DNA of 64,000 nt, from the NCBI GenBank assembly GCA_964637185.1, contig CAZWVB010000001.1, positions 160,972 through 224,971 of the forward strand, given 5' to 3'. The stretch is from an uncultured Candidatus Saccharibacteria bacterium. Lineage in GTDB: Bacteria; Patescibacteriota; Saccharimonadia; CAILAD01; BJGX01. Made by a program: the position numbers and the translations under genes. Positions 1 to 61,991 of this stretch are shown here, piece after piece (positions within the stretch are counted from its first letter, which is position 1; every line of letters begins with the position of its first letter). The notes beneath the pieces are model-generated. The model was not told the origin of the DNA, did no database searches, and saw only the letters and a list, made by a program, of their open reading frames with translations.

Positions 1-417
1 CCGTGCCCAGGTGAGTTTGGCCCAACAATTGGGTCCATCAGGATGAAAGTGGCTTACCCCGGCAGCGCCGCGATCCACCACGATCAGCTTCTTGGCATCC
101 TCTAAGGCCAGCTGTTGAGCGGCGGTTTCCAGCTCAATCATGCGTTTGAGCACGGCATCTTGCAAATGGTGGCGGTACCCCCGCCAGATACCAGCTGCGG
201 TATCATCTGCGCCCATCTGCTCGCACCAGTCAAGCAAACTCGGATCGGGGAGCGGTACCAGCTGTTCTGTTAGCACCTGGGTAGCTGCCTCGGGCACCGT
301 CAAGACATGGTCGTCGAATATCTCGGCAATGGCAGTCAAGATGGTGGACTTACCGGCACAAGGGCCGCTGTCTAGTACCACCATTGGAATCGGCAGTGTA
401 TCGGTAGTGACAAGCAT
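1..417 (-). CDS. P-loop NTPase, AAA_28-like ATPase/kinase (5' end complete, 3' end runs off window start)
   Basis: Reverse-strand translation from ATG (plus 415-417) reads MLVTTDTLPIPMVVLDSGPCAGKSTILTAIAEIFDDHVLTVPEAA... The Walker A motif is GPCAGKST. An AGGAGG Shine-Dalgarno lies about 5 nt upstream (reverse complement of plus 421-430). It is absent from the ORF track because the window edge truncates it. Confidence 0.6.
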   Translation of the reverse strand, partial: MLVTTDTLPIPMVVLDSGPCAGKSTILTAIAEIFDDHVLTVPEAATQVLTEQLVPLPDPSLLDWCEQMGADDTAAGIWRGYRHHLQDAVLKRMIELETAAQQLALEDAKKLIVVDRGAAGVSHFHPDGPNCWAKLTWAR

Positions 418-537: not shown

Positions 538-1206
538 ATGATGCATGTGATCCAAAAAGAAATTCTGGCCAAGCTAATCGCGGCTGATAGCCTGCGGTTT
601 TCGCAACTCAAACCCAAGCACTTGGAGAGCAATCACTTCATGTATCATCTGCGTGCGCTGATGCGCGAGGGATTGGTCGAGAAGCGAGCCGATGGACTGT
701 ACAGCCTCACTACACAAGGCAAGCTGTATGTCGATCAGGTGAGCTTGCGTACCCTCAAGACCCGTTTGCAGCCCAAGATTGTTACCTTGGTGGCAGTGCA
801 GAATAAGGAGGGCCAATGGCTGCTCTACCGACGCAAACATCAGCCACTGATCGGCCAAGTCGGATTCCCATATGGCAAATTGCACCTGGGTGAAACTGTA
901 GCTGAGGCTGCTGAGCGTGAGCTTATGGAAAAAACTGGGTTGAAATGTAAGCTTACTCATCGCGGCGATGGTTATATCATCATCAATGAAGGTAGTGAGC
1001 CAATCAGCCAGATATGTTTCCATTTGTTTTATGGTCGCAATCCTACCGGCGAGTTGCGTGAGGAGACTCCATACGGTGAGATGTTTTGGAGTGAAGAAGG
1101 TACGGATTTTTCCAAACCACCATATATGGTAAGTATGGTTGACCTTATCAAACAAATAGAGAAGCCAAGCAAAAACCGATTTTTTGTAGAATTAACCTAT
1201 AAATAG
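538..1206 (+). CDS. Winged-HTH / Nudix hydrolase fusion protein
   Basis: The N-terminal ~70 aa look like a MarR-type wHTH (ILAKLIAADSLRFSQL...YHLRALMREGLV). The C-terminal part carries a Nudix box, GKLHLGETVAEAAERELMEKTGL (GX5EX7REUXEEXGU pattern). Confidence 0.7.
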   Translation: MMHVIQKEILAKLIAADSLRFSQLKPKHLESNHFMYHLRALMREGLVEKRADGLYSLTTQGKLYVDQVSLRTLKTRLQPKIVTLVAVQNKEGQWLLYRRKHQPLIGQVGFPYGKLHLGETVAEAAERELMEKTGLKCKLTHRGDGYIIINEGSEPISQICFHLFYGRNPTGELREETPYGEMFWSEEGTDFSKPPYMVSMVDLIKQIEKPSKNRFFVELTYK

Positions 1207-1236
1207 CAGAGCGCCCGGCCGAAACCGGGCGCTCTG
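1207..1236. terminator. GC-rich hairpin between convergent genes (bidirectional terminator candidate)
   Basis: CAGAGCGCCCGG-ccgaaa-CCGGGCGCTCTG is a perfect 12-bp stem. It lies immediately after the stop at 1206 and before the minus-strand gene ending at 1266. Confidence 0.55.
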
Positions 1237-1265
1237 GGCGCGGTATCAACCGGGCGATGGGGTCG

Positions 1266-1562
1266 TCAGTTGGCGACGAGATCGGGCTGTGCCAGCAGCA
1301 ACTTGAGCTGCTCGCGGAAGGTCTTGTCTTCGCTCACCTCGAGTGTGATGTAGACGCGTTGTGCACAACCGCCAGCCTTGATGACGGCAGGGACGCGGCG
1401 TGCTTCTTCTTCGGCCGTGCCATGGCGGTACTCAACACGGGGTTTGCCGGAGGCGGCACCAGGCTGAAGTGCGCAGGTATGCACCTTGCGCACGAACGGG
1501 AGCGCTTCAAGTCGTTGGAACAACTTTTTGATCTCCTTGTTGGCGATGACGTGTTTGCCCAT
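1266..1562 (-). CDS. Hypothetical protein (98 aa), GC-rich islet
   Basis: ORF with a strong SD (AGGAGG, 5 nt spacing) upstream of the ATG at 1562. It sits in a GC-rich block distinct from the flanking DNA. No recognised motif. Confidence 0.5.
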   Translation of the reverse strand: MGKHVIANKEIKKLFQRLEALPFVRKVHTCALQPGAASGKPRVEYRHGTAEEEARRVPAVIKAGGCAQRVYITLEVSEDKTFREQLKLLLAQPDLVAN

Positions 1563-1602
1563 GGATTCCTCCTGATGGTTGATGGGCGGACCTGGATGAA
1601 CT

Positions 1603-2049
1603 TCAGGCCGACTTCTTGCGGCTCCAGCTGCCGATCACCAAGTCAGCTTCGTCGACCAGATGGCTCAGACAGAGCGGCTCGCCGAGCTGGCGCAGTTGCG
1701 GCAGCGTGATCTTGAGCTGACCGAGGGTGAGACGCAACCGTGGGTGCTGCAAGTTGCCGAGCAGCTCCAGCTGCCTGATCAGGGTCTCGTAGGCAACCTT
1801 GACGTTGCCGGGTATGTACTGCGAGCCACCAGTGTAGGCAGCCTTCTCCAGTAGGTCCTTGACCCAGGCTCGATGGGCTCGCTCGAGTACTCGGAAGCTA
1901 GTGTCGAGCTCAACAGGCTTGATATCACCTGCGTCGACCGCCAGCAACATGATGTTGTAGTGGTTGTCGAAGCCAGCTCTGTTGATTGCGTGGAACAAGG
2001 CCCGATATGCGGATTGCACCGCCAGCTTGTGGTATGCGTCGCTGGGCAT
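1603..2049 (-). CDS. Hypothetical protein (~148 aa), GC-rich islet
   Basis: The ORF track gives 1603..2055. The likely start is the second ATG (MPSDAYHK...) with AAGGAGG 9 nt upstream. No recognised domain. Confidence 0.5.
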   Translation of the reverse strand: MPSDAYHKLAVQSAYRALFHAINRAGFDNHYNIMLLAVDAGDIKPVELDTSFRVLERAHRAWVKDLLEKAAYTGGSQYIPGNVKVAYETLIRQLELLGNLQHPRLRLTLGQLKITLPQLRQLGEPLCLSHLVDEADLVIGSWSRKKSA

Positions 2050-2225
2050 ATGCATGCCTCCTTGTAGAATTGGTGGGACAGCGATCGGGAAGTATTCTAC
2101 AACTTCCAGATCAAAAAGTCAATAAAAACAAAAACGACCCACCCGGGGCCCCGGCTCGCTGTGTAGCGAATACCGGGACCCCAGACGGGCGGCACCCATT
2201 CCCCCGATTGGGCACCCTGGGTGAG

Positions 2226-2627
2226 CTAGCTCGCCATGGCAACGAACGGCAGTCGGTCGCTGATCCCGAAGTGATCCGCGAGCTCGTAGAGCTCCTCGAA
2301 GCTCGAGTCGAAGTCCTGCGGCGTCACGGCCAGCAGCCCGCCCCAGTTGGCCGACTCAGCGAGCTCCAGGCCGAGCATGCAGAGCACGCCGCGGCCGTTC
2401 ATGCGGTTGCAGAGCGCCTTATGCTTGATCGCCTGGAGCTTCGCTTCGTGGAAGCGGAGCTTTAGGACCTCGCGGATCCTCTTCTGGGTAGTACCAGCCT
2501 TGGGGGCGGTGATCTCACCGGCCTTGACGGCGCGGGCCAGCGGCATCACGAAGGTGGTGTCACCTTTGTTGACGCGTTCGCCCCAGAAGCGGAACTGCTC
2601 GGTTTTTTCCTTGCTGACTGCACTCAT
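2226..2627 (-). CDS. Hypothetical protein (~134 aa), GC-rich islet
   Basis: The ORF 2226..2696 contains an internal ATG at 2627 (MSAVSKEKTEQF...) preceded by GGGAGGAAACC, a good SD. The longer N-terminal extension lacks an SD. Confidence 0.5.
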   Translation of the reverse strand: MSAVSKEKTEQFRFWGERVNKGDTTFVMPLARAVKAGEITAPKAGTTQKRIREVLKLRFHEAKLQAIKHKALCNRMNGRGVLCMLGLELAESANWGGLLAVTPQDFDSSFEELYELADHFGISDRLPFVAMAS

Positions 2628-2716
2628 GGTTTCCTCCCTAGAAGAGTGCGTGAATATTGGTACAGCTAAGGCATATTTAACCAGTTCTAGGCACAAAAGT
2701 CAATTTGTGACTGGTA

Positions 2717-2745
2717 TTGTGATCTTACGTCAGATCGGCTATAAT
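2717..2745 (+). promoter_or_regulatory. Sigma70-like promoter upstream of fusA (-35 TTGTGA, 17-nt spacer, -10 TATAAT)
   Basis: TTGTGA at 2717-2722 and TATAAT at 2740-2745. The -10 is preceded by CAGATCGG, a variant of the recurrent CCAGATGG element. Confidence 0.5.
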
Positions 2746-4942: not shown

Positions 4943-4964
4943 TACTAGCTCAACTTAACTTACA

Positions 4965-4990
4965 AAAAGAGCCTTACTAGGCTCTTTTTG
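4965..4990 (+). terminator. Rho-independent terminator after fusA
   Basis: AAAAGAGCC-ttactag-GGCTCTTTTTG: a stem followed by a T-run. Confidence 0.7.
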
Positions 4991-5097
4991 TTTATGCTTG
5001 AAATTATCGAGAAATAGTGTATGATATCGCTACCATCCTGGGTTGGTGCAAAGGGATGCGGGCGGAGGCCCAACCCTACAACACCAGGAGGTGCAAA

Positions 5098-5303
5098 TGC
5101 CAGACGAAGACGAGCTGAGCAGCTCAAGCCACCACGTCTACGATGAGGTGGCGCCACTGATCCGCCGGCGCAAACCGACTGATCAGGAAGTAGCAGGCCA
5201 TCCCACCACCGGTGATTCGGTGGACGAGGCCACGCTACGAGCAGTTCGTGATCGACTGGAAAAGGAGCAAGGGGAAACTTCCGAACCTCCCCAAGCCAGC
5301 TGA
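5098..5303 (+). CDS. Hypothetical small acidic protein (~68 aa), GC-rich islet between fusA and tuf
   Basis: ATG at 5098 (MPDEDELSSSSHH...) lies within ORF 5043..5303 and is preceded by GGAGG. The DNA is GC-rich relative to fusA and tuf. Confidence 0.4.
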
Positions 5304-5393
5304 TCACCAAGTCTGGTTGGCGGCTCTGGTGCACAAATGCCAGGGCCGCCGCCAGCGAATTCTTTCCAACCGCTGATCCAATAGGGAGGAACC

Positions 5394-5699
5394 ATGGGCA
5401 GCAAGCTCATGCAAGTACTACTGGCGCTCTACCAAGTTGTGATCATGCTCTTGGTGTCACTGGCTCTCGTGATCGGCAGCTTTGGCAGCCTGCTGAGTGG
5501 CGATTGGGGCTACGTGCTCTGGAGCATGCTGTCCGCACCGCTCGGGTTCGGGCTAGCCATGGGTCTGCCGCTGTTGTGGGCCTGGGGCTACCAGCACACC
5601 CGCACCATCATCCACAAGCTGCGTGTCTACCATGGGGGTCGGCGCGACATAGTCACGTTGGTGCACAACAGCGAGCAAGATGATCGGAGTCAGGTATGA
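5394..5699 (+). CDS. Hypothetical membrane protein (101 aa, 3 predicted TM)
   Basis: SD GGGAGG precedes the ATG. Hydrophobic segments: LLALYQVVIMLLVSLALVIGSF and LGFGLAMGLPLLWAWGY. Confidence 0.5.
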   Translation: MGSKLMQVLLALYQVVIMLLVSLALVIGSFGSLLSGDWGYVLWSMLSAPLGFGLAMGLPLLWAWGYQHTRTIIHKLRVYHGGRRDIVTLVHNSEQDDRSQV

Positions 5700-6022
5700 A
5701 CGACGCCGGTTGGTGCTACCAAACAGGCCGAGCGGGCTTGGCAGCCTATCTCGGCTGTCATGGTCTGGCGCGCTCACTATGGTTTCAGGTGACGTGGTGC
5801 CATATGACATTCATCGGTATTGGCGTGTTGATCGGTATGGGGCCAGACAGAGACAATGCCCTGAGCATTCTCATCGGATCCCTGCTGGCCAGTCTTGTCA
5901 TCTATCTAGGCATCTGGCTATGGAGTGTTCGGGCAGCCGCACTGGCGCGCTACCGCATTCAGCAAGATATCCAGCTAGCGGTGAACCGCATCATCTTCGA
6001 GGCTGGCGAGGAGGGTGGGTGA
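5696..6022 (+). CDS. Hypothetical membrane protein (108 aa)
   Basis: Start overlaps the previous stop (ATGA), which suggests translational coupling. Two hydrophobic helices. GC-rich. Confidence 0.45.
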   Translation: MNDAGWCYQTGRAGLAAYLGCHGLARSLWFQVTWCHMTFIGIGVLIGMGPDRDNALSILIGSLLASLVIYLGIWLWSVRAAALARYRIQQDIQLAVNRIIFEAGEEGG

Positions 6023-6077
6023 TCTCGGGATAAGTTTCGGGATCACCACCACGCAATTATTATTGCCGACAAAAGGC

Positions 6078-6106
6078 TTTACAAACCAGGGTAAAATCCC
6101 TATAAT
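6078..6106 (+). promoter_or_regulatory. Sigma70-like promoter upstream of tuf (-35 TTTACA, 17 nt spacer, -10 TATAAT)
   Basis: TTTACA at 6078-6083 and TATAAT at 6101-6106. A hairpin ACTGGC...GCCAGT at 6123-6146 lies in the leader. Confidence 0.5.
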
Positions 6107-7782: not shown

Positions 7783-8247
7783 TTAGTTAGTATCTTCATC
7801 TTCAAGTTCCCCCATATGTCTGAAACTAGCGAATTCATCATCTGCCGCACCACTTTCGGCTGCAGCCATTCGAAGTGCCTCATCTAAAGCATGCATACCT
7901 AGGACGTTTTCAAAACCTTTAGCACGTTTGTGACGAGTTGCGGGATCGCTATAAGGAATATCTTGGGCATTCAAAGCGTTGTAAATTTTAGCTAGCCTTT
8001 TATCCATTTCTGCAAGTAGTATTAGGTTTTCTCTTGCTGGCCGGTCTGAATGCTCTAGATCATTTTTCAACTTTTCTTTTATTTTATTAACATTATTTCC
8101 ATCTATAAGCAAAGCTTCTATTTCCTCATCCGATACTCCAAAATCATCTTCGGTAGTTTCTAGCTCGCTAGGGTTTACGGCCGGTTTGAAATCCTCTGCT
8201 GGCTTGTCGCCAGGCGTTGGCTCATGTGGTGTCATAATATCCTCCAA
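7783..8247 (-). CDS. Hypothetical highly acidic protein (154 aa), AT-rich
   Basis: ORF on the opposite strand inserted between rpsJ and rplC. Very acidic termini (ELEDEDTN, DDFGVSDEEIEALL). No recognised domain. Confidence 0.5.
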   Translation of the reverse strand: MEDIMTPHEPTPGDKPAEDFKPAVNPSELETTEDDFGVSDEEIEALLIDGNNVNKIKEKLKNDLEHSDRPARENLILLAEMDKRLAKIYNALNAQDIPYSDPATRHKRAKGFENVLGMHALDEALRMAAAESGAADDEFASFRHMGELEDEDTN

Positions 8248-8689: not shown

Positions 8690-9205
8690 GTGAGCATGAA
8701 TCTTACAGAGTTCAAATCCACGGTACCACATCCACTGCGGGTGGTAACCATTGTGCTAATGCATCGCAACGGACATGTGGTGCTCGGCATGAAGAAGCAA
8801 GGCTTCGGAGCCGGCAAATGGAACGGTTTTGGCGGCAAACCGAAGGAGGGCGAGTCTGTCTGGAAGTGCGCCTACCGTGAGGCAGAAGAAGAGTCTACCG
8901 TACGGCTCAATGCCATGCGCCGTGTGGCCTATCTCAACTTCTACTTCCGTGACATCCCGATCGATCAGGGCTGGAACCAACAAGCACAGGTATTCATCTC
9001 AGACAACTGGTCTGGAACACCAACCGAGACTGACGAGATGCGGCCGCAGCTGTTTGGTATGGACGATCTGCCACTCGACGACATGTGGCCATTCGACCGT
9101 GAGTGGGTGCCCCGAGTCCTTGCTGGCGAACGGCTGGTAGGGGATTTCTTGTTCGCAGGCGAAGGTGAGCCAGTTGAGCGTCGGTTCTTGCCGTACCCTG
9201 AGTAA
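8690..9205 (+). CDS. Nudix hydrolase, MutT/MTH1 (NUDT1)-like 8-oxo-dGTP diphosphatase
   Basis: LGMKKQGFGAGKWNGFGGKPKEGESVWKCAYREAEEES closely parallels MTH1's [38 protein letters not shown]. The downstream ...GTPTETDEMRPQLF...MWP... segments also match. The start may be the ATG at 8696, which has a better SD. Confidence 0.75.
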   Translation: MSMNLTEFKSTVPHPLRVVTIVLMHRNGHVVLGMKKQGFGAGKWNGFGGKPKEGESVWKCAYREAEEESTVRLNAMRRVAYLNFYFRDIPIDQGWNQQAQVFISDNWSGTPTETDEMRPQLFGMDDLPLDDMWPFDREWVPRVLAGERLVGDFLFAGEGEPVERRFLPYPE

Positions 9206-9307
9206 TTGGGATACGGCGGGAACCAACCGCTTTGCATTCACATTGAATACATACTACAATCAAGATAAGCAAAACAATTTAACCTATTAATAGGAGATAT
9301 CTCAACA

Positions 9308-18924: not shown

Positions 18925-20244
18925 ATGAATACGGCGCTGTTACGGCAATTGTATACCAACCGAGACCTGCGCAAACGAGTATTGATAGTACTGGGTATTT
19001 TGGCTGTCTATGCTGCGCTTACAAATGTGCCGGTACCGGTGCCAGATACTGCCAAGTTGCAAAACTTCCTATTACGGATGTTCCAATCTAGCCCACTCCT
19101 AGGCTTCGCCAATCTTTTTACTGGCGGGGCGATGAGTAGGTTTTCAATTATTCTGATGGGCTTGGGGCCGTACATCAACGCCTCCATTATTATTCAGCTG
19201 CTTACCCAGGTTGTACCACAGCTCAACGAACTTCAGAAGGAAGGTGAATCTGGACGTGCCAAGATAAATCACTACACAAGGCTGCTAACTGTACCATTGG
19301 CTATTATCCAATCTATCGCCATGATTACTTTTGTCCGCACTCTTTCTGTTCAAGTAGGCGGTGTTGACGTGGTCGGTAGCCCTACTATCGCACAATGGGT
19401 GTTGATGGTATCTAGTATCACGGCCGGCAGCTTACTACTGACTTGGCTGGGCGAGCTTATTACCGAGTATGGCATAGGCAATGGGATATCATTGATTATT
19501 ATGGCTGGTATTGTGGCCAACCTGCCTGGTATGGTGTTACAACAGTTTAGCTTGGCCCAAGCTGATAGCACCAAACTCATCACACTGATCGGGCTTGGAG
19601 TAGTGGCATTTCTGGCCATTATCTTCGTGGTCTATCTCAATGAGGGCCAGCGCAATATCCCCATATCTTATGCGCGTCGTACCAGTCTGATAGGCAGCAG
19701 TAGCGGCGTAGATACACATTTGCCGTTGCGGGTGATATCTGCTGGCGTTGTACCAATTATATTCGCCTTGGCCTTCTTGAGCGTGCCGGCTTTTTTGGGG
19801 CAACTATTTAGCCATGCTAGCACGCCGTGGGTGGCCAATGCGGCCGCTACACTGAGCCGATGGTTCCAGCCCACCAACACCATCTATGCCGTTACTTATT
19901 TCCTGCTAGTGTTTAGTTTTACATATTTCTATACCAGTATCATCTTCCGGCCGTCTGAAATAGCCGAGAACCTACAGAAACAAGGTGGTTTTATACCTGG
20001 CGTACGACCAGGCAACGAAACTGCTAAATATCTTAAGACTATTATCAACCGTATCACACTGGTGGGGGCTCTGAGTCTTGGTGTTTTGGCGCTATTCCCA
20101 TTTATACTGCAGCGGTTTTTCCAGAATTCAAGTGCTCTGGTGAGTATAGGCGGTACTGGTCTACTGATTATTGTGGCTGTAGTGATTGAGACTATGAAGC
20201 AAGTGGAAGCCAAAGCTTTGATGGCTAGTTATGAGAAATACTAG
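18925..20244 (+). CDS. secY: Preprotein translocase subunit SecY
   Basis: 439 aa with 10 TM segments. Expected position after rplO. Confidence 0.95.
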   Translation: MNTALLRQLYTNRDLRKRVLIVLGILAVYAALTNVPVPVPDTAKLQNFLLRMFQSSPLLGFANLFTGGAMSRFSIILMGLGPYINASIIIQLLTQVVPQLNELQKEGESGRAKINHYTRLLTVPLAIIQSIAMITFVRTLSVQVGGVDVVGSPTIAQWVLMVSSITAGSLLLTWLGELITEYGIGNGISLIIMAGIVANLPGMVLQQFSLAQADSTKLITLIGLGVVAFLAIIFVVYLNEGQRNIPISYARRTSLIGSSSGVDTHLPLRVISAGVVPIIFALAFLSVPAFLGQLFSHASTPWVANAAATLSRWFQPTNTIYAVTYFLLVFSFTYFYTSIIFRPSEIAENLQKQGGFIPGVRPGNETAKYLKTIINRITLVGALSLGVLALFPFILQRFFQNSSALVSIGGTGLLIIVAVVIETMKQVEAKALMASYEKY

Positions 20245-20570
20245 TGATTTACGAACTTCGAACTTACGAAACCTTCAACCATAACAAAAAGGCTTTTCAT
20301 GACCGTTTTGAAGAGCACGCCATGCGAATCATGAAAAAATATGGTTTTGAAATAGTTGGCTGCTGGGATGAGGAAATTGGCGAAATGCAAAATTTCAGCT
20401 ATATTCTTGCTTGGAAAGACTTGAATACCCGTCAAGCAGCTTGGAGTAATTTTAATTCTGATGAAGAATGGTCAAATATAAAACTAGAATCCTTCAAGAA
20501 ACACGGCCAATTGGTATTTAAAACACACAATAAAATACTAAAACCTACAAAATATTCACCATTGCAATAA
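20244..20570 (+). CDS. NIPSNAP family protein
   Basis: 108 aa beginning MIYELRTYE, the characteristic NIPSNAP N-terminus. GTG start overlapping the secY stop. AT-rich. Confidence 0.6.
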   Translation: MIYELRTYETFNHNKKAFHDRFEEHAMRIMKKYGFEIVGCWDEEIGEMQNFSYILAWKDLNTRQAAWSNFNSDEEWSNIKLESFKKHGQLVFKTHNKILKPTKYSPLQ

Positions 20571-24829: not shown

Positions 24830-24932
24830 GATATGATCTTCCGAAATATTCTAGCTTGCTAAAATGCTTTGGAGGACCTTCCGACGAGTCGCATTCGTCG
24901 GAAAGCTGGCCCAATCGGACTGTCGTTGATCT

Positions 24933-25400
24933 TCAGACCGGCACGTGTTCATCCATCAGCCCTAGGTGGCAGATGTAGGCCTGGCCACGCTCGGCGTTGA
25001 CCAGCTGGAAGATCGGGTCCTCGATGGTGGCCTGTGCGTCAGCGAGCAGGTACTCGATGCCGTGGATGCACCACTCGTCGGGGCGATCGACGTGGGCTGT
25101 CTTGAAGAAGATCCCGTAGGTGGCTTCCGCCGAATCGTCCGGCGGGCTCCCGATCACGTAGGTGAAGTCCACCATGACGTGCTCACGCCAGGCCGCGCGG
25201 ATCCTGAGGTCGTTCTCGGGGTGCACGGGCGCATCCGGCTGGCCCCGGTAGTGGTCGCGGATGAGCGAGACCGTGAGCTCGTCGGCGAACTTCTCGGCTG
25301 CCGATTTGCTCTTGAACAGCGCCACAGGACAAGTCCGGTCGGCCCAGAGGTTGCCGAAGCGCTGTGGCTTGAACACCACATAGCGATCTGCAGAGGTCAT
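24933..25400 (-). CDS. Hypothetical protein (~155 aa), GC-rich islet
   Basis: ORF track 24933..25454. The likely start is the ATG at 25400 (MTSADRYVVF...) with GGGAG 8 nt upstream. The GC-rich hairpin TTCCGACGAgtcgcaTTCGTCGGAA at 24881-24906 is a likely terminator for this gene. Confidence 0.5.
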   Translation of the reverse strand: MTSADRYVVFKPQRFGNLWADRTCPVALFKSKSAAEKFADELTVSLIRDHYRGQPDAPVHPENDLRIRAAWREHVMVDFTYVIGSPPDDSAEATYGIFFKTAHVDRPDEWCIHGIEYLLADAQATIEDPIFQLVNAERGQAYICHLGLMDEHVPV

Positions 25401-25477
25401 TAGCATCTCCCGTTGTCGAGGTATTGCCTGATTTGGACTGTTGCATTTTATCATAAAATAGTAATAAAATCAAGTAT

Positions 25478-31106: not shown

Positions 31107-31493
31107 TTAATTCTTAGTTTTATTAGCTTGTTTTTGTATCTGCTCCAATTCATCTTGATGTTTGACCATCTTAACATTTAAATAACTAATTAGTGAGCTT
31201 ATGGCAGCTGCAAATATTAGGTATACTATGATGGCAAATAATGCACTTGCGCTAAAATAGCCTGTTTGCCCAACTGGATGAGTCGCAAAGATACCACGAA
31301 ATGGCGCCATAAATTCATAAGCTATGTTGTAAACAAACTGGACAAATGGTGTATTGGCATTTGCCCCAAAAAGCAACATAAAAAATCCAAATGTTAGTGA
31401 AATTACCGCAACGATAGTAAACGCGTACACTACATATGAGATTGCTCGTGTAAACTTGATAAAAATAAGCGTTGAATCAGATGGTTTTTGCAC
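31107..31493 (-). CDS. Hypothetical membrane protein (128 aa, 3 TM)
   Basis: Hydrophobic helices. No recognised motif. Confidence 0.45.
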   Translation of the reverse strand: MQKPSDSTLIFIKFTRAISYVVYAFTIVAVISLTFGFFMLLFGANANTPFVQFVYNIAYEFMAPFRGIFATHPVGQTGYFSASALFAIIVYLIFAAAISSLISYLNVKMVKHQDELEQIQKQANKTKN

Positions 31494-31665: not shown

Positions 31666-31742
31666 TGGCAGGGGTGGCAGGAGTCGAACCCGCGACCTTC
31701 GGTTTTGGAGACCGACGCTCTAGCCAACTGAGCTACACCCCT
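31666..31742 (-). tRNA. trnW: tRNA-Trp (anticodon CCA), CCA end encoded
   Basis: Reverse complement AGGGGTGTAGCTCAGTTGGCTAGAGCGTCGGTCTCCAAAACCGAAGGTCGCGGGTTCGACTCCTGCCACCCCTGCCA. Anticodon loop CTCCAAA. Confidence 0.85.
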
Positions 31743-31812
31743 TGGTTTGTGAAATCGCGAAAGAGATAAATCAACCAGGATATTTTACCAAAAAACATGC
31801 AGTTTTGACAGG

Positions 31813-32037
31813 TCAGGACTTGTTGTCGCCGTGCTTGATAGCGGCCGCCAGTACAAAATATATGATCAGTCCAGGGATGATGCCAGATAACACAATAAAA
31901 ACTATACCAACGATACGTACCCAGGTAGGACTGAGTTTGTAGTAGTCGGCAATGCCGCCGGCTACTCCGGCTAGGTGTCTATCATCTTCCGAGAGGGTTA
32001 TATCGGGCTCTTTGGTGGATTTTTTGGACTTGGCCAT
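31813..32037 (-). CDS. PspC-domain small membrane protein
   Basis: LAGVAGGIADYYKLSPTWVRIVGIVFIVLSGIIPGLIIYFVLA is the PspC domain pattern. Confidence 0.7.
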   Translation of the reverse strand: MAKSKKSTKEPDITLSEDDRHLAGVAGGIADYYKLSPTWVRIVGIVFIVLSGIIPGLIIYFVLAAAIKHGDNKS

Positions 32038-32249
32038 TATTTCTTACCTTGCTCTGGAATGATGAATAGTCCCACCACAAAATATACAAATACACCTGGC
32101 ACTATACCCGAGAACAGAATTAATAACAGTACAATTATGCGTACCAGCGATGCGTCTATATTGAAGTATTCAGCAATGCCGCCGCATACGCCGAGTAATT
32201 TTTTGTCCTTTGACAGAGTGAGTTTCTTGTGAGGTTTCTTAGTTGCCAT
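32037..32249 (-). CDS. PspC-domain small membrane protein (tandem paralog)
   Basis: LLGVCGGIAEYFNIDASLVRIIVLLLILFSGIVPGVFVYFVVG. The start is uncertain: the ORF track extends to 32294, but that would place it 17 nt from the tRNA. Confidence 0.6.
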   Translation of the reverse strand: MATKKPHKKLTLSKDKKLLGVCGGIAEYFNIDASLVRIIVLLLILFSGIVPGVFVYFVVGLFIIPEQGKK

Positions 32250-32310
32250 AAGTGTATTGTACTCTTGACTTTGGCTTCGTGCCAAGCCAATCATAACTCG
32301 ATAAAATCGA

Positions 32311-32386
32311 TGGAGCCACCCACGAGATTCGAACTCGTGACCTCTTCCTTACCATGGAAGCGCTCTACCAACTGAGCTAGGGCGGC
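32311..32386 (-). tRNA. trnT: tRNA-Thr (anticodon GGT)
   Basis: Reverse complement GCCGCCCTAGCTCAGTTGGTAGAGCGCTTCCATGGTAAGGAAGAGGTCACGAGTTCGAATCTCGTGGGTGGCTCCA. Anticodon loop ATGGTAA. Confidence 0.85.
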
Positions 32387-32462
32387 TGGAGCCGATGGAG
32401 GGATTCGAACCCACGACCTGCTGTTTACAAAACAGCTGCTCTGCCAGCTGAGCTACATCGGC
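32387..32462 (-). tRNA. trnT: tRNA-Thr (anticodon TGT)
   Basis: Reverse complement GCCGATGTAGCTCAGCTGGCAGAGCAGCTGTTTTGTAAACAGCAGGTCGTGGGTTCGAATCCCTCCATCGGCTCCA. Anticodon loop TTTGTAA. Its 3' CCA abuts the 5' end of the previous tRNA with no spacer. Confidence 0.8.
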
Positions 32463-32679
32463 TCGTCCAAATATTATTGTAGCTTACGTCTTTTATACGA
32501 CTTCAGCTGACATAATATTTCTCCTCTCGATTTGTCAAACGGAGGCCTGGTTTGGCAAATCAGGTTTGATAATCCTAACCGAATCAAAAGTCAGCTTTTG
32601 ATTCGTAAAGGAGCAGTGATGTGTAAGTTACAAATATGAGTTGATAGCTCATATTATCAACTGGAACATAACTGTGACG

Positions 32680-32927: not shown

Positions 32928-33257
32928 GTGGCGCAACCCGATGTCTTTGTAGTCGAAGTGCGGGTGAGAAAGACCGACGACGACCCGCCGCTGCGGGTCT
33001 ATCACACCGAGGTGCGAGACGGAGAAGGTGTCTGGCAGGAGACCTTTGGCTCGCGCGAGCAGCTGGAGGCTTACCTGCGTGGGCTCAACACGATCTTGTT
33101 CCAGTCTGGGTATCTGGCACATCTACTTGGCTGGCATCAGCCGGACAGCTGGCAACTGCCGGCTGGACGACGCTGGACCATACCGTTGATCGGTCAAGGT
33201 GAACCCAAGACAGAAGATCTCGATCATGAAGGCAAGGCGATGATCGACGTGTTGTGA
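32928..33257 (+). CDS. Hypothetical protein (109 aa), GC-rich islet
   Basis: GTG start with AAGGGAGA upstream. An overlapping alternative frame exists at 32909..33202. The coding frame choice is uncertain. Confidence 0.35.
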   Translation: MAQPDVFVVEVRVRKTDDDPPLRVYHTEVRDGEGVWQETFGSREQLEAYLRGLNTILFQSGYLAHLLGWHQPDSWQLPAGRRWTIPLIGQGEPKTEDLDHEGKAMIDVL

Positions 33258-33354
33258 GGTCATCAAGTGAGGTGGGGTACGGCACATCGGCCTACCCCAA
33301 GCGATCTAGGAGACTAGGTCGCCGTTTCGTTATTATCTGCAGTATAATTGGTGC

Positions 33355-35343: not shown

Positions 35344-35994
35344 CTAGACCGGAGGCTGCGAGGGGCTGATCGGGGTGGCCAGGATCTTGGTGGTAGACAC
35401 ACTCTGCTCGATCAGCTCGCTGAGCTTGGCCTTGAGCTCGGGGCTGGCCTGCTTGTCGTAGTTCTCCCAGGCCACGTCGACCTGTAGCGCCTCGAGCGCG
35501 TCGGCCAGCTCTTCGTCGTTCAGCGTGCCGAGGAACTTCCAGATCAGTTTGGGGTGTGACGCCAGGAAGTTGGGGTCGAAGTGCACGCCTTTCACGATGG
35601 ACTCGCGGTCGGTCGTGCCCAGCGCCTTGAGGAACTCAACTGCCTTGCCGGCCTTGACGTTGCGGCCGAGCACGATGACACGCTGCACCTTCATGCTGCG
35701 CTGCTGACCGGCCTTGCGGTACTCGATGCCGGTGACGCCCTTGTAGTTGGGTTCGTCGAGCCGACTGTTGATGGCCGCCTTGGCTTTGGTCTCAGACTTC
35801 TCGACTACCCGCTTGCGCTCACGCGCGCGGTACAGGCGCCAGCCGAAGTAGGCCAACGCCAACAGGCGCTTGAGCGACGAAACCTTCAGCTCGGGCGGTT
35901 GGGTGTCCTCTTCGCCGAGGACGATGAGTCCGGGTACGAGAGCTGACGCGTCTCGCCGGCCGTACTCCTTGCCACGGTCCCGGGATCGTGCCAT
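35344..35994 (-). CDS. Hypothetical basic protein (~216 aa), GC-rich islet
   Basis: ORF track 35344..36066. The likely start is the ATG at 35994 (MARSRDRGKEY...) with AGGAG upstream. A CCAGATATGG palindrome plus TATGCT lies at 36038-36053 on the minus strand. Confidence 0.5.
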   Translation of the reverse strand: MARSRDRGKEYGRRDASALVPGLIVLGEEDTQPPELKVSSLKRLLALAYFGWRLYRARERKRVVEKSETKAKAAINSRLDEPNYKGVTGIEYRKAGQQRSMKVQRVIVLGRNVKAGKAVEFLKALGTTDRESIVKGVHFDPNFLASHPKLIWKFLGTLNDEELADALEALQVDVAWENYDKQASPELKAKLSELIEQSVSTTKILATPISPSQPPV

Positions 35995-56848: not shown

Positions 56849-56948
56849 ACTTAGTTTTCAAGCTTTTTAGTTTGAGCACAATCATATATACTAAATCCTG
56901 ACTTAGAGGCGGAAAGTTTCCGACCTTGAAAACTAGGAGGTGAGGGCT

Positions 56949-57449
56949 GTGCCCCACATCAACAATCCAGGGGTGGATTGGTGCGTCACGGCCTACATCG
57001 TCCGTGAACATGAAGGTGAGTTGCAGGTTCTACTGTGCGACCATCGCAAGCTCGGCACATGGGTGCCGATTGGTGGCCACGTGGAACCGCACGAAGACCC
57101 CATCACGGCGCTGTTTCGCGAAGTTCGTGAGGAGTGTGGTGGGATCGATATCAAGCTGCTCTACGGCAAAGCGTCGCGTTCCCACTACGGTCCGAAGAAC
57201 TACGACCTGCCCAAGCCAGACTTCTTCGATCTTCACCCGATCGAGACCGAGGTGGATCATCAGCATGTTGGCATGGGCTGGATCTGCTGGCTCGACGCTG
57301 GCGAACCGACGCTCAGCGATGAGCATCGAGAGCTGCGTTGGTTCAGCCGAGGTGATCTCAGTGGGGTCAGCATGCCGATCAACGTGCTCAATCACGCCTG
57401 CGACGCGCTGCACTACACCAAGCTCGACATCAGCTGGGTAAAGGAGTAA
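56949..57449 (+). CDS. Nudix hydrolase (GC-rich)
   Basis: Nudix box GGHVEPHEDPITALFREVREECG. GTG at 56949 has AGGAGG 8 nt upstream. The ORF track start at 56940 is an alternative. Confidence 0.75.
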   Translation: MPHINNPGVDWCVTAYIVREHEGELQVLLCDHRKLGTWVPIGGHVEPHEDPITALFREVREECGGIDIKLLYGKASRSHYGPKNYDLPKPDFFDLHPIETEVDHQHVGMGWICWLDAGEPTLSDEHRELRWFSRGDLSGVSMPINVLNHACDALHYTKLDISWVKE

Positions 57450-57452: not shown

Positions 57453-58070
57453 ATGTCTCAACCACTCTATATTGCACTTGAGGGTGTTGAGGGTTGTGGC
57501 AAGTCCACGCAAGCTCAACTCCTCGCCGATCGACTCGGTGCTGTTCTGACTCGTGAGCCAGGCGGCACCCCGATGGGCAGCATGGTTCGCCAGATCTTGC
57601 TCGATCCGAACACCGGAGAGCTCGAACCCATGGCCGAAGTGTTGCTGTTCAATGCCGACCGTGTGCAGCATCTGCACGAGGTGGTGTTGCCGGCGCTGCA
57701 GGCTGGCCAGCCAGTGGTCTCTGATCGCAGCTATGTCAGCAACTGTGTCTACCAAGGCCACGCTCGTGGGCTGGGTGCCGACTATGTGCGCTCGGTCTGC
57801 AGCCTGGTGGTGACCGAGCTGTTCCCGCATCGAATCTTCGTGCTGGATGTGGACCTGGCTGACTCAATGGCACGGATCAGTGCCCGTGGGGGTGAACTCG
57901 ACCGCTTCGAACAAGAAGGAGCGGAGTTTCATGCCAAGCTCGTAGAGGGGTTCCGCATCGAAGCTCAGAAGGGGCTGCCTGGTCAGTTCGTGTTCATCGA
58001 TGGCCGCGGCAGCGTGGAAGAAGTCCAACAATCCATCTGGGCTCATGTCGAGCCCTTGCAAGCAGCCTGA
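57453..58070 (+). CDS. tmk: Thymidylate (dTMP) kinase
   Basis: P-loop IALEGVEGCGKST, TREPGGT and LID-region DRFE. Confidence 0.9.
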   Translation: MSQPLYIALEGVEGCGKSTQAQLLADRLGAVLTREPGGTPMGSMVRQILLDPNTGELEPMAEVLLFNADRVQHLHEVVLPALQAGQPVVSDRSYVSNCVYQGHARGLGADYVRSVCSLVVTELFPHRIFVLDVDLADSMARISARGGELDRFEQEGAEFHAKLVEGFRIEAQKGLPGQFVFIDGRGSVEEVQQSIWAHVEPLQAA

Positions 58071-58082: not shown

Positions 58083-58352
58083 GTGAGTGCGCCACTGCTA
58101 GATATGAAGGTCCGCTTCAACCAGGAGCGGAAGATGTGGGAGGCTTATCGGCGTGCTCCGCGCACCGTCAACGACTCTGTCGGCCACCCGCGTCACAAGC
58201 CAGAGGTTGAAGTAGTGGTAGAAGCCGGTGACATGGCTACGTTTCGCGAGAAACTAATCGATCACTTACTCCGGCCGTACTTCGAGCGAGCACAAGAAGA
58301 AGTCGATGCCGCGATCGATGCGGCATATCGTGAACAACCGCGCCCCAACTAG
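58083..58352 (+). CDS. Hypothetical protein (89 aa), GC-rich
   Basis: GTG start with GAGGAGGG upstream. No motif. Confidence 0.4.
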   Translation: MSAPLLDMKVRFNQERKMWEAYRRAPRTVNDSVGHPRHKPEVEVVVEAGDMATFREKLIDHLLRPYFERAQEEVDAAIDAAYREQPRPN

Positions 58353-58377: not shown

Positions 58378-60213
58378 ATGCCCACGAAAGAGAGAAACCC
58401 ATACATCCGGACCTACAAGGGGCAGAAGGTGCCGACCAAGCTTGGCATCCGCTACCTGAGCGAGATCGTGACCGATCCGACTGGGCCGGTCTACTTCTTC
58501 ACCGCACAAGCCAACATCGTGGTGGTGGCGGCAGCCATGGCCCGGCTCAGCCGGCGCGATGGCGACCTGCGGGTCACCATCCTCGAGGAGTTCGCTGGTG
58601 TGCAAGACGCCGCCGTGCTCACCAAGCTGCGCAAGCACGAGCTGCTCAAGGTGATCCGTGAGCTGGAGAACGCGTTGAAGTTCTTCGAGACCGAGTTGGG
58701 CGGCTCATTTGCTCGGGACGAGGAGCTACCTCACCAGATCAAGGCACTGCGGACGCTGCGGCAGGCGATTGCCGACCTCACGGCCGGCCGACTGCGGACT
58801 GAAGAGGCGGCCGCGCTGATCAACCGTGTGGTCACCGAGTTCGGTGACGATTCGGTGCAGCAGCTGATCACGGTGATGTTCGTCTGCGAGGGTGTGAGCA
58901 ACCTCATGACCAAGGAGCTGGAGTGGGGGCGAGTGGCTGCGGCCTATCTCGAGCAGTCCACCCGCTATATCTACTTCGACACCAAGGTCGACGGTCGCTA
59001 CAAGTACTTCCGGCCAGAGCTCGAGGACTTGCTCGCGTACTACGAGTTCATCATGGATGAGATCTTCGATCGTTACTCCACGGTGGTGCGTGAGGTCACC
59101 GAGTATGTCAAGGTGCACAACCCGCGTCCGGACAAGGCTGCGGATCCGGGCGGGCATGCCGGCTGGCCTGGTTCGGTGCGGGCGGAAGCCTGCGATGCTG
59201 CACGGGCCATCCTACCGGTTGGCACCCGCTCGACGGTGGGTATCACCATGTCGGCTCAGGCTCTCGATGCGCTGATCATGCGACTGCTGTCACGTGAGCT
59301 GCCCGAGGCTCGGGCCATGGGCGCCGCGCTGCTGCGCGAAGCCCGCAAGGTGATCCCGGAGTTCTTGGAGCGCACCGACAAGCCTGACCGCGGGCTGATG
59401 ACCATCAGCTACTTGGCCGAGACGCGGGCTGGTCTGCGCGAGTTCGCGCTCAACGAGCTACCGCCTGCCAAGTTGGCCAAGAAGAGCAAGAAGGCCGAAG
59501 AGCCGGTGACGCTACTGGACTACTACCCACATGATGAGCGTGAGTTGGGACCAGGCTTGCTCTACGCCGTCGATGGTCGCTCCATGACCGAGCTGGGCAA
59601 GCTGGTTGGCAAGCTGCCGCGCAAGAAGCTGCGCAAGCTCATGCTGATCTACTTCGGCGAGCGCCTCAACCGACGTCATCGGCCGGGGCGAGCTGCCGAG
59701 GCAGCCAGCTTCAACTGGGAGCTGGTCGGCGACTATGGCACCTTCCGCGACCTACAGCGGCACCGCATGGTCAGTGCCATGGAGTGGCCGGCGCTCACGC
59801 CGTATCTCGGCTACGAGGTGCCGGAGCTGGTGACGAAGGCTGGGCAGCACGACAACTTCGTTCGGGCCTTCGAGCTGTCCAGCGAGCTCTACAACGAGTT
59901 GTACGGCGCTGGCTACAAGTACGAGGCTCAGTACGCGCTGTGCATGGGCTACCGCATGCGCTACCGCTTCATCACCAGTCTGCGTGAGCTGTTCCATCTG
60001 CTGGAGTTGCGCACCAGTCCGCAAGGTCATCCCGGCTACCGCAAGCTGTGCAACCTCATGTACGACGAGGTGGCCCGGGTCTACCCGATCAGCGCGGAAG
60101 CCATGTGCTTCGTCAACCAGCAAGACACGCTCGGTGAGCTGACCCGCATGGCCTCGGAGCGGGCCACAGCCGACAAGCTGGCCAAGCTGGCGGAGCGGGC
60201 CACTGCGGAGTGA
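58378..60213 (+). CDS. thyX: FAD-dependent thymidylate synthase ThyX, tandem (pseudo-dimeric) two-domain form
   Basis: ~611 aa. The C-terminal half carries the ThyX RHR motif (LQRHRMVSAME). The N-terminal half shows a degenerate ThyX-like block (FVCEGVSNLMTKELEWGR). ATG at 58378 with AAGGAGG upstream. Confidence 0.75.
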   Translation: MPTKERNPYIRTYKGQKVPTKLGIRYLSEIVTDPTGPVYFFTAQANIVVVAAAMARLSRRDGDLRVTILEEFAGVQDAAVLTKLRKHELLKVIRELENALKFFETELGGSFARDEELPHQIKALRTLRQAIADLTAGRLRTEEAAALINRVVTEFGDDSVQQLITVMFVCEGVSNLMTKELEWGRVAAAYLEQSTRYIYFDTKVDGRYKYFRPELEDLLAYYEFIMDEIFDRYSTVVREVTEYVKVHNPRPDKAADPGGHAGWPGSVRAEACDAARAILPVGTRSTVGITMSAQALDALIMRLLSRELPEARAMGAALLREARKVIPEFLERTDKPDRGLMTISYLAETRAGLREFALNELPPAKLAKKSKKAEEPVTLLDYYPHDERELGPGLLYAVDGRSMTELGKLVGKLPRKKLRKLMLIYFGERLNRRHRPGRAAEAASFNWELVGDYGTFRDLQRHRMVSAMEWPALTPYLGYEVPELVTKAGQHDNFVRAFELSSELYNELYGAGYKYEAQYALCMGYRMRYRFITSLRELFHLLELRTSPQGHPGYRKLCNLMYDEVARVYPISAEAMCFVNQQDTLGELTRMASERATADKLAKLAERATAE

Positions 60214-61553: not shown

Positions 61554-61682
61554 CATTGACATAAGCATTAATACCTGATATAATCTTCGTACCACTTCAG
61601 GTGGCCGGAGACCAAGTGAATACCCCAGGCGGACACGAGGTCTTTTTTGTTTCTATTCACCCACGGCGACCAAGGGAGGACC

Positions 61683-61991
61683 ATGACTCGCCGATACCAC
61701 AAGAAACGTCAGCCGCCAGAGCTGACGGTACGCACCTATTTGCGCTGTGCACCCAACAGCGCGCATCCGCAGGAGGTGCTCTGGCTCAGCTGGTGCCAGC
61801 TCGGCAACGGAGCCGAGCCGCTGCACAGCTTCTGCCAGCATCCAAGCTGCGACGGCCGTGGTCAGCGTGTGCCTACAAGCGAGCTGACCAACAAGTACCG
61901 CCAAGCGCGCTTCGAGGCTGGTGAGATCGCGCTGGCCTTGCCCGATGGGCAGTGGCTGGTACAGCCGGCCAAGTCCGTGGCACGGGTCTGA
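61683..61991 (+). CDS. Hypothetical Cys-rich protein (~102 aa), GC-rich islet
   Basis: ATG at 61683 has AAGGGAGG upstream. Six Cys (C..., CQHPSCDG). A GC-rich hairpin GGGAAGGGGC-gaga-GCCCCTTCCC follows at 62007-62030. Confidence 0.4.
   Translation: MTRRYHKKRQPPELTVRTYLRCAPNSAHPQEVLWLSWCQLGNGAEPLHSFCQHPSCDGRGQRVPTSELTNKYRQARFEAGEIALALPDGQWLVQPAKSVARV

Follow-up and report, generated by a model that had tools for sequence, protein, structure and literature searches.

Seven short GC-rich blocks, here called islets 1 to 7, punctuate a 64,000-nucleotide stretch of DNA from an uncultured Candidatus Saccharibacteria bacterium (GenBank assembly GCA_964637185.1, contig CAZWVB010000001.1, positions 160,972 to 224,971; hereafter, the window). 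A first-pass annotation had read these islets as repeated small acquisitions from a high-GC donor, with an actinobacterial host as the obvious candidate. Our comparison with related genomes leads to a different picture. The slots in which the islets lie, and several of the islet genes, are older than the split between sister species, and some islet genes have been replaced as whole alleles between closely related strains. The explanation that we favor, and to which we give about an even chance of being right, is that the islets are native, hypervariable cassettes exchanged among relatives, whose GC-richness is actively maintained, possibly through a recombination-associated GC bias.

The islets are compositionally distinct from the backbone

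The window as a whole has a GC content of 0.489. Scanning it at 200 bp with a threshold of GC ≥ 0.56, we recovered all seven blocks that had been picked out by eye, at GC 0.58-0.61 (Table 1). The pooled GC content of the islets is 0.608, versus 0.472 for the backbone. To quantify this by codon position, reading frames were picked by the pattern GC3 > GC1 > GC2 (GC at third, first, and second codon positions) and by their agreement with gene calls on identical public contigs. GC3 ranges from 0.58 to 0.87 in 14 islet genes, versus 0.479±0.072 in 68 backbone genes (Mann-Whitney p=5.6e-9), and the deviation for which a check had been proposed is therefore significant. The two sets share the same GC2 (~0.40), with a slightly higher GC1 in islet genes.

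The difference extends beyond base content. The GC-normalised dinucleotide signature gives a delta* of 121 for the islets, versus 30±9.5 (maximum 67) for random backbone samples, and the relative abundance of TA is 0.56 in the islets versus 0.88 in the backbone. Islet proteins, compared with the i5 row left out, have an arginine share R/(R+K) of 0.70 versus 0.44 (p about 1e-5) and contain more Gly, Ala, Arg, and Pro (GARP). The spacers within islets have a GC content of 0.54-0.60 in both the window and the sister locus L094, for a spacer total of only ~600 bp, and islet borders are sharp; spacers outside islets, as well as other orphan genes, are AT-rich. At four-fold degenerate sites in the islets, G and C are both raised. 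Since four-fold G and C rise together, intra-islet spacers are GC-rich, and amino-acid composition shows the GARP shift, we favor a GC pressure acting at the DNA level over codon choice.

These data bear directly on gene-specific selection for GC, whether for mRNA stability or structure or for rare codons that tune cassette expression. Such selection would fit the change of composition exactly at gene or transcription-unit borders, the fact that most of the difference lies at synonymous sites, the reduced synonymous divergence of islet 6 (as if it were constrained), and the elevated GC of thyX in the related locus L128 as well as in this clade. Nevertheless, we consider it rather improbable: G- and C-ending codons rise generally rather than as particular codons, the spacers and the amino-acid composition are shifted too, no common function or expression class is evident among the orphans, membrane proteins, and nucleotide enzymes concerned, and the highly expressed ribosomal protein genes use an AT-richer codon set.

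An assembly chimera was ruled out by ten independent metagenome assemblies, which reproduce the islet junctions at 99.6-100% identity. Structured RNA was rejected as the source of the GC-rich blocks as well, since no Rfam family was found in any islet; the only Rfam matches in the window are four tRNAs at 31.7-32.8 kb.

Compositional deviation is not confined to the islets. The genes at 7783-8247 (minus strand), 20244-20570, 31107-31493 (minus strand), and 63311-63928 are AT-rich (GC 0.35-0.42, GC3 0.29-0.35), which makes the genome a mosaic both ways. In the same-species contig L002, the place of the first is taken by another gene, of 203 aa, so that the site after rpsJ counts as a further variable slot. 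Some core genes adjoining islets deviate toward GC: upstream of the window, on the same-species contig L001 (1556-2460), GC3 is 0.65 in rpsL and 0.59 in rpsG, versus 0.42-0.50 in sister genomes, and rpsJ has a GC3 of 0.72 in the window versus 0.47-0.64 in sister genomes. The GC enrichment may reach beyond the islets into adjoining core genes.

The same slots hold GC-rich genes in sister genomes

Sister genomes were reached through homologues of ThyX and EF-G, and about 130 loci were gathered overall; in the scan of genome contigs for fusA, the best match was 72% among the matches listed. Named EF-G relatives at 77-95% identity are Candidatus Saccharibacteria or Saccharimonadia. A single 116-kb contig supplies both L091 and L094, L095 (EF-G 95% identical) belongs to a closely related genome, and L092, for which no EF-G was available, is close to L091 in its backbone genes. 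Backbone GC in these four loci is 0.40-0.49, and their slots hold orthologues of i1a-c, i2a-c, NudixC, tmk, i6, thyX, and i7 (labels as in Table 1) with a GC content of 0.53-0.63. The GC-rich pattern recurs in L091 and L092 at islet 6 and in L092 at islet 7. Syntenic identity is 61-76% for i1a-c and 36-58% for i2a-c, and 94-96% for fusA, tuf, rpsJ, and NudixA.

GC-rich small genes occupy the same slots in L094/L095 (EF-G 95%), L096/L097 (89%), and L098/L099 (88%), where the slot genes have a GC content of 0.53-0.63 versus 0.44-0.49 in the backbone. In L100 (EF-G 86%, GC 0.42) and L101 (82%, GC 0.51), the slot genes are not GC-elevated. The fixed slots rpsG/fusA, fusA/tuf, rpsI/trkA, and rplA/rplJ themselves recur in all relatives examined.

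A recent gain, or repeated independent gains, does not agree with these results, given that sister genomes keep islets 1, 2, 6, and 7 in synteny and rich in GC at a distance where backbone synonymous sites are near saturation. The comparison with sibling genomes, which had been suggested as a way to date the insertions, shows no patchiness for islets 1, 2, 6, and 7, which are kept in the sisters whose EF-G is 95% identical.

Whole alleles are replaced at some of the slots

Comparison of close relatives revealed abrupt local losses of identity. L096 and L097 have identical EF-G and backbone identities of 97-100%, and yet identity is 55-65% over h194, with sharp edges and with both alleles GC-rich. 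L094 and L095 are 90-98% identical, dropping to 64-83% over the islet-1 homologue. Between L091 and L092, backbone proteins are 92-99% identical, Tmk 53%, i6 62%, and ThyX 84%. The window tmk is 92% identical to that of L092 at the amino-acid level and 86% at the nucleotide level, the latter above every backbone gene (0.56-0.82). In pairwise identities, which are not trees, thyX is equidistant among the window, L091, and L092, and i1c has amino-acid identities of 0.76 between the window and L095, 0.61 between the window and L094, and 0.67 between L094 and L095, even though L094 and L095 have identical EF-G. Judged by such identities, tmk, i6, thyX, and i1c appear incongruent with the backbone.

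Altogether, i1c, the L096 h194 gene, tmk, i6, and thyX have been replaced wholesale by divergent GC-rich alleles between near-identical strains. Because the replacement occurs in otherwise near-identical strains, the conserved flanks are probably the recombination anchors, and whole-allele exchange presumably proceeds via homologous recombination in these flanks. Replacement tracts fall on the GC-rich loci, a qualitative association. Local hypermutation was rejected as a source of the divergence, as the islets are not more polymorphic than the backbone within the species, whose contigs differ at only 0-0.5% of sites.

High GC does not behave as a decaying donor signature, at least in islets 6-7

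We then asked how much of the GC-richness could be inherited from a donor, using an amelioration model with the relaxation rate taken from the backbone and 5000 bootstraps. Residual identity at backbone four-fold sites is just 16-21% between the window and the sister, and four-fold GC (GC4) is 0.70-0.76 in the islets of both lineages versus 0.35-0.48 in the backbone. For islets 6-7, neutral decay needs an ancestral GC4 of 1.27 in the window lineage and 1.35 in the sister lineage, with values ≤1 in 0/5000 bootstraps. Since the required ancestral GC4 exceeds 1, neutral amelioration is impossible there. For islets 1-2, the required values are 0.95 and 1.07 (≤1 in 18% of bootstraps), and the strong/weak state at their four-fold sites is virtually uncorrelated between the lineages (residual 0.03), both at GC4 0.70.

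Homologues in more distant relatives complete this comparison. L096_h194 and L097_h193 have GC3 values of 0.79 and 0.73, versus 0.40 in their homologue L100_h193 from the same slot. The AAA_28 orthologue has a GC3 of 0.59 in the window species, 0.60 in L094, 0.53 in L098, and 0.28 in L100. The clade's thyX genes stand +0.34 to +0.38 above the backbone in four-fold GC, compared with +0.12 for that of L128 and about +0.02 for that of L093. High GC behaves as a stable property of these loci in the clade, at least for islets 6-7. As such, the idea that the GC-richness is a residue of the donor's composition is rejected for islets 6-7 and at the borderline for islets 1-2, and the slot orthologues in the relative with 86% identical EF-G are not GC-rich.

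The same data allow us to weigh a one-off ancient gain, in which the clade ancestor received the islets from a GC-rich donor and purely vertical descent with incomplete amelioration followed. Synteny in the sister species, the lack of GC-richness in the slot genes of L100, and the borderline rejection for islets 1-2 would all be expected from such a history. We regard it as very improbable, however, because the ancestral GC4 for islets 6-7 exceeds 1 in 5000/5000 bootstraps, the four-fold states of islets 1-2 are virtually uncorrelated (residual 0.03) and yet both lineages stand at GC4 0.70, incongruence and allele replacement contradict purely vertical descent, and L100 has slot-gene homologues of backbone-like GC.

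A drift of weakly selected genes to a GC-rich mutational equilibrium was also rejected, since GC-richness does not track protein divergence: glyA (66% identical) and rplA (74% identical) are not GC-rich, and tmk, at 92% identity, is.

Searches for a donor

Among the best 120 relatives of ThyX, those with names are only Patescibacteria or Candidatus Saccharimonadales. The i5 protein has 8 matches among 1.84 billion representative proteins, all of them unnamed metagenome proteins. The small islet orphans match no family in Pfam, NCBIfam, PHROGs, or PADLOC, with islets 1-2 not searched against a taxonomy-labelled genome database, and a tblastn query of all orphans joined together had no match in 50,697 records of phages and 72,556 of plasmids. 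Wherever the taxonomy of best hits could be searched (islets 1-2 lie outside this search), they fall within the same lineage, an outcome that the first-pass annotation itself had named as contradicting a foreign source. No integrase or transposase domain was found in any islet gene by domain searches, flanking direct repeats not having been searched, and only islet 4 adjoins tRNA genes.

A phage, plasmid, or defence-system origin received no support in the phage, plasmid, PHROG, PADLOC, and viral-contig searches. The sole match from four viral-contig scans, to i3 (L127), is spurious, as its frame overlaps a 596-aa gene on the opposite strand.

Repeated small acquisitions from a high-GC actinobacterial host are, in light of these searches, extremely improbable. 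The GC content of 58-63%, with GC3 up to 0.87, does resemble actinobacterial composition, and the dinucleotide signature has a foreign appearance; islet 3 represents an insertion, islet 4 adjoins tRNA genes, and islets 1-2 are marginally compatible with decay from a donor with four-fold GC of ~0.95. Transfer between candidate phyla radiation (CPR) bacteria and other bacteria has also been predicted in activated sludge, where an excerpt of Wang et al. (2023, PMC10031880) gives predicted transferred fragments of 0.5-5.7 kb, half of them unannotated. On the other hand, ThyX has its relatives in Patescibacteria or Saccharimonadales, shows an architecture and a synteny typical of the lineage, and has no sequence match to solved ThyX structures; i5 matches only unnamed metagenome proteins; the orphans are without family, phage, or plasmid match in the databases listed above; the islets are kept across sister species rather than patchy; and the L100 slot orthologues are not GC-rich. 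For TM7x, McLean et al. (2020, PMC7427843) report no strong sign of host-derived genes, and in these two reports some lineage-specific genes are regarded as acquisitions from diverse sources. Hence, what stands of the proposed horizontal acquisition is the foreign-looking composition, the insertion of islet 3, and the movement of alleles at the sites, whereas its recency and the host donor do not. By nearest-homologue taxonomy and by patchiness, the islets are unlike host-derived islands; by composition, they resemble them.

A model of exchanged, GC-maintained cassettes

In the model that we favor, the islets would be small accessory cassettes in the gene pool of a single subclade of Saccharibacteria, delimited by an EF-G identity of 88% or more, rather than recent host imports. 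The cassettes sit in fixed slots between highly conserved genes, namely rpsG/fusA, fusA/tuf, rpsI/trkA, the site by the tRNA cluster, and sites inside rplKA/JL, where the conserved flanks would anchor recombination that swaps whole alleles. A process tied to this frequent recombination would keep GC high; the most plausible is GC-biased gene conversion, in which heteroduplex DNA is repaired with a bias to GC. The bias may act on third codon positions, on intra-islet spacers, and, more weakly, on amino-acid composition. GC-biased gene conversion would fit the raised four-fold G and C, the GC-rich spacers, the altered amino-acid usage, the rapid evolution of the islet proteins, and the coincidence with replacement tracts.

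Several observations weigh against this model. The effect size, GC3 +0.3, is far above the slight per-gene effect of bacterial GC-biased gene conversion, for which the association between recombination and GC3 has an R2 of 0.03-0.09 (Lassalle et al. 2015, PMC4450053). The presumed anchors fusA and tuf are not GC-enriched, and composition switches sharply at the gene borders of the islets. Although GC-rich, i1a and i2a-c agree with the backbone in their pairwise identities. Polymorphism within the species is not higher in islets 1-2 than in the backbone. Finally, the relic model is rejected only at the borderline for islets 1-2.

A stronger version, which we put forward tentatively, is that the islets are isochore-like micro-domains, held at a second compositional equilibrium by strong GC-biased conversion or another recombination-linked bias. 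It is equally tentative that this equilibrium, with four-fold GC of ~0.7-0.8 versus ~0.4-0.5 a few hundred bases away, would extend to the essential genes tmk and thyX, and no less so that the same bias would drive the fast protein evolution of the orphans.

The main rival to exchanged, GC-maintained cassettes is introgression from an unsampled, GC-richer (~60% GC) Saccharibacteria lineage by natural transformation and homologous recombination in the flanks, with no local force acting on composition. Wholesale allele replacement with sharp edges, incongruence between trees, and boundaries that are sharp at gene borders would all follow from introgression. So would the low synonymous divergence (dS) of islet 6, 0.65-0.81 versus flanks from 1.2 to saturated in the comparison of the window with L092, and a distinct dinucleotide signature and amino-acid composition of the kind expected after a long stay in a GC-rich genome; the ThyX is of Saccharimonadales type. 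However, no Saccharibacteria locus with backbone GC above about 0.53 was found among the ~130 loci, and a donor with GC3 of ~0.8 is needed. In addition, every allele seen in every clade member is GC-rich, including the backbone-congruent ones, and thyX identities follow the backbone gradient. We therefore consider introgression unlikely, if still the most serious competitor.

Genes of the islets

Table 1. GC-rich blocks, genes, and candidate regulatory sites in the window
Feature	Positions	Strand	GC	GC3	Remarks
Islet 1 block	1201-2650		0.604		200-bp scan
Islet 2 block	5001-6050		0.581		200-bp scan
Islet 3 block	24851-25450		0.605		200-bp scan
Islet 4 block	32901-33300		0.578		200-bp scan
Islet 5 block	35201-36050		0.611		200-bp scan
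Islet 6 block	56901-60350		0.608		200-bp scan
Islet 7 block	61601-62100		0.598		200-bp scan
Extra block	1-400	-	0.58		Absent from first-pass annotation; equals 5' part of AAA_28 gene
Weaker extra block	8751-9250				Nudix gene; 200-bp scan
AAA_28-domain gene, 5' part	1..417	-			Last gene of a further GC-rich block between rpsG and NudixA, upstream of the window
NudixA	538..1206	+			Backbone gene parting two GC-rich blocks; PF00293 match
i1a	1266..1562	-	0.593	0.70	Islet 1; 98-aa orphan
i1b	1603..2055	-		0.77	Islet 1; 150-aa orphan, predicted all-helical
i1c	2226..2627	-		0.87	Islet 1; 133-aa orphan
i2a	5097..5303	+			Islet 2, fusA/tuf slot; small acidic protein
i2b	5394..5699	+		0.77	Islet 2; 101-aa membrane protein
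i2c	5696..6022	+		0.65	Islet 2; 108-aa membrane protein
Islet 3 gene (i3)	24933..25454	-	0.615	0.80	Single 173-aa orphan between rpsI and trkA
Islet 4 gene	32928..33257	+	0.588	0.66	109-aa orphan
i5	35344..35994	-			Islet 5; 216-aa orphan, start at Met25 of a 240-aa open reading frame
NudixC	56940..57449	+		0.72	Islet 6; Nudix hydrolase, PF00293 match
tmk	57453..58070	+			Islet 6; thymidylate kinase, PF02223, 142.8 bits, profile positions 1-185/185
i6	58083..58352	+	0.574		Islet 6; 89-aa orphan
thyX	58378..60213	+	0.633	0.83	Islet 6; long flavin-dependent thymidylate synthase, 611 aa
i7	61647..61991	+	0.635	0.76	Islet 7; orphan of ~105-114 aa between glyA and rplJ
GC-rich hairpin	1207..1236	.			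13-bp stem, 10/13 pairs G-C; between convergent NudixA and i1a
Promoter-like site before fusA	2717..2745	+			TTGTGA-17-TATAAT, 10/12 matches
Terminator-like hairpin	4962..4991	+			Directly 3' of fusA; 13-pair stem, then T-rich tail
Promoter-like site before i2a	4998-5025				
Promoter-like site for tuf	6078-6106				
Promoter-like site before i7	61556-61584				Consensus at 12/12 positions
Strong hairpin	33301-33322				3' of islet 4 gene
Strong hairpin	35298-35315				

Both gene trios, the one on the minus strand in islet 1 and the one on the plus strand that separates fusA from tuf, are genuinely coding, as had been proposed, with ratios of non-synonymous to synonymous substitution (dN/dS) of 0.11-0.40 against their sister orthologues. 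The i1a ortholog in the same slot of L094 and L095 is 74% identical (dN/dS 0.11), and i1b is 72% identical to L094_h149 (0.16); i2b and i2c are 41% and 36% identical to L094_h107 and L094_h111 (0.38 and 0.40). Across all tested orthologue pairs, dN/dS is 0.06-0.40, and the islet genes are under purifying selection. The exact i2b protein was found in 29 blocks of public assemblies. A single-sequence AlphaFold2 model of i1b reached a predicted local distance difference test (pLDDT) score of 43.7, too poor for use.

By phmmer, i2a is related to L094_h74, L096_h82, L098_h86, and L100_h90a, with E values between 1e-8 and 7e-3 within a set of 29 sequences, and the motif HH..V.PL.RR.KP is shared among these proteins. 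An i2a-type protein is encoded directly 3' of fusA across the family (L094 12289-12513, L096 13056-13304, L098 12412-12672, and L100 13039-13311). The i2a-type protein may be a conserved partner of the translation genes.

Contigs of the same species have the gene order rpoC-rpsL-rpsG-[four minus-strand genes]-Nudix-[i1a-c]-fusA-[i2a-c]-tuf-rpsJ, in which ~5 kb of extra DNA parts rpsG from fusA and 1.25 kb parts fusA from tuf. The AAA_28 gene lies in full at L001 4329-5024 (GC 0.557, GC3 0.59), position 1 of the window being position 4608 of L001. NudixA, 94-95% identical in the 95% sister species, is itself a compositional mosaic, with GC3 of 0.62-0.72 in its 5' half and 0.35-0.47 in its 3' half. 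The placement of small genes between fusA and tuf, which had been called unusual, is so in part only: insertions of 0.6-3.5 kb at this site occur in roughly 10/24 other Patescibacteria loci tabulated, where they are not GC-rich.

Islet 3 lies in a gap that measures merely 107-164 bp in 13 distant Saccharibacteria (TrkA 57-65% identical), so that it is an insertion relative to these. A metagenome scan made with a lipase-like gene gave no match. Islet 4 adjoins a tRNA-Tyr gene at 32680-32766; a tRNA cluster (Trp, Thr-GGT, Thr-TGT, and Tyr; 31666-32766, minus strand) lies directly upstream of it. The i5 protein belongs to an extremely rare family, one homologue of which sits in a compositionally uniform contig of 52% GC. 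Given the homologues, AlphaFold2 yielded a confident model of i5 (pLDDT 80.4) with a 42-residue helix and a beta-sheet; searched against PDB folds, it had no match. The i7 orthologue in L092 is 105 aa long, has a GC content of 0.563, and is 53% identical.

The assignment of a Nudix gene, tmk, and thyX to 56.9-60.2 kb was confirmed by Pfam matches. The best solved relatives of the islet 6 Tmk are bacterial thymidylate kinases (E=5e-34). ThyX matches PF02511 in two stretches at 122.7 bits (cut-off 24.8) and the NCBIfam equivalog TIGR02170 at 70.9 bits, below the cut-off of 87.9, and hence belongs to the domain family and falls short of the equivalog. NudixC is present in L092 and missing from its close relative L091, and i6 has orthologues of 87-88 aa in the same place in both (dN/dS 0.23). 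The islet is flanked by dcd and glyA, the whole set lying between rplA and rplJ. Judging by these gene assignments, a dTMP-synthesis cluster is made up of NudixC, Tmk, ThyX, and the neighboring dcd and glyA.

The gene thyX occurs in the same nusG-rplK-rplA-dcd-...-thyX array in L091, L092, L093, and L128. Its identity to L092, L093, and L128 is 83, 67, and 58%, versus 93, 85, and 80% for nusG and 75, 63, and 63% for rplA. Since ThyX identity falls in step with the backbone and the array is syntenic, thyX has been inherited within the lineage. All of the best 120 ThyX relatives are of the long type, at 530-810 aa, with many Tmk-ThyX fusions among them; the fused proteins of Saccharimonadales measure 770-810 aa and are named 'dTMP kinase'. 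As in these fusions, tmk stands immediately upstream of a long, two-stretch ThyX in the window; in contrast to them, the two genes are separate, with the 89-aa orphan between.

The window Tmk is 92% identical to that of L092, 57% to that of L091 (9082-9696), and 41% to that of L093 (9357-10001). It is 27-40% identical to the Tmk part of Saccharimonadales Tmk-ThyX fusions. These identities point to two or more deep lineages of tmk alleles in the clade, or to a xenologous replacement.

NudixC is one of three Nudix paralogues within 57 kb (538-1206, 8690-9205, and 56940-57449). The second of these is mildly GC-rich in both the window and sister genomes (GC3 0.61-0.64).

Hairpins and transcription units

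Promoter-like sites and terminator-like hairpins of their own seem to accompany most islets (Table 1). The hairpin between NudixA and i1a is likely a bidirectional terminator. Because promoter-like sites precede fusA, i2a, tuf, i7, and rplJ, the sequence suggests that the str and rplKAJL operons are divided here into separate transcription units. The description of the islets as bounded by terminator-like hairpins holds for four strong hairpins (1207-1236, 4962-4991, 33301-33322, and 35298-35315) and does not hold in general, as the frequency of terminator-like sites is no higher than in shuffled sequences.

Relation to known systems

Core-gene-flanked hot spots of horizontal transfer and recombination are an established concept in bacterial comparative genomics, and accessory DNA is usually AT-richer than the chromosome. 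The islets resemble such hot spots in their fixed slots, in the differing genes or alleles of close relatives, in their sharp tracts, and in their incongruence. They differ in that the cassettes are tiny (0.3-3.3 kb), carry no integrase or other mobility gene in domain searches, lie inside the str and rplKAJL operons, and are GC-richer than the chromosome. Classical genomic islands undergo amelioration, as in the model of Lawrence and Ochman. With these, the islets share deviant GC, GC3, and dinucleotides, the position of islet 4 by tRNA genes, and that of islet 3 in a conserved array; unlike them, the islets show no decay to backbone composition despite near synonymous saturation, are conserved in sisters, and have no identifiable donor taxon.

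The pattern described for GC-biased gene conversion (PMC4450053) is similar in that recombining loci are higher in GC, most strongly at third positions, and apparently in spacers too and independently of optimal codons, and different in that the reported effects are slight per gene, whereas in the window GC3 differs by ~0.3 with sharp borders. Neither of the excerpted transfer reports for Saccharibacteria and CPR bacteria (PMC7427843, PMC10031880) describes conserved GC-rich micro-islands or their persistence. Among known categories, the islets come nearest to transfer hot spots flanked by core genes and to GC enrichment associated with recombination, and the variant feature is the presence of GC-rich, conserved, swap-prone micro-cassettes inside the ribosomal operons of a CPR bacterium.

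GC-rich islands in lower-GC genomes are routinely read as fresh transfer, and in episymbionts they are used to guess the host. That reading fails here, where the islands are old, lineage-native, and compositionally stable. If our interpretation is correct, host prediction by composition in Patescibacteria needs caution, and a genome of about 1 Mb with a few fixed slots would offer a compact natural system for studying two base-composition equilibria in one chromosome. GC-biased gene conversion, still debated in bacteria, would be the obvious candidate for the underlying process. The slots would also mark where naturally competent Saccharibacteria swap small genes, possibly genes of host interaction, and would be candidates for genetic study.

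Other loci in the window

Three further loci were noted. A carotenoid-type cluster at 46344-53588 encodes a UbiA-glycosyltransferase fusion, a CrtI-like amine oxidase, a polyprenyl synthase, and a squalene/phytoene synthase; it is syntenic in L091-L093, and L128 (1175-5289) adds a lycopene-cyclase domain gene. The sole Pfam match of a giant 1795-aa protein (36195-41582) is a C-terminal GNAT acetyltransferase domain. The segment at 41696-44163 encodes an ABC transporter ATPase and an FtsX-like permease, followed by an ECF-type (extracytoplasmic function) sigma factor.

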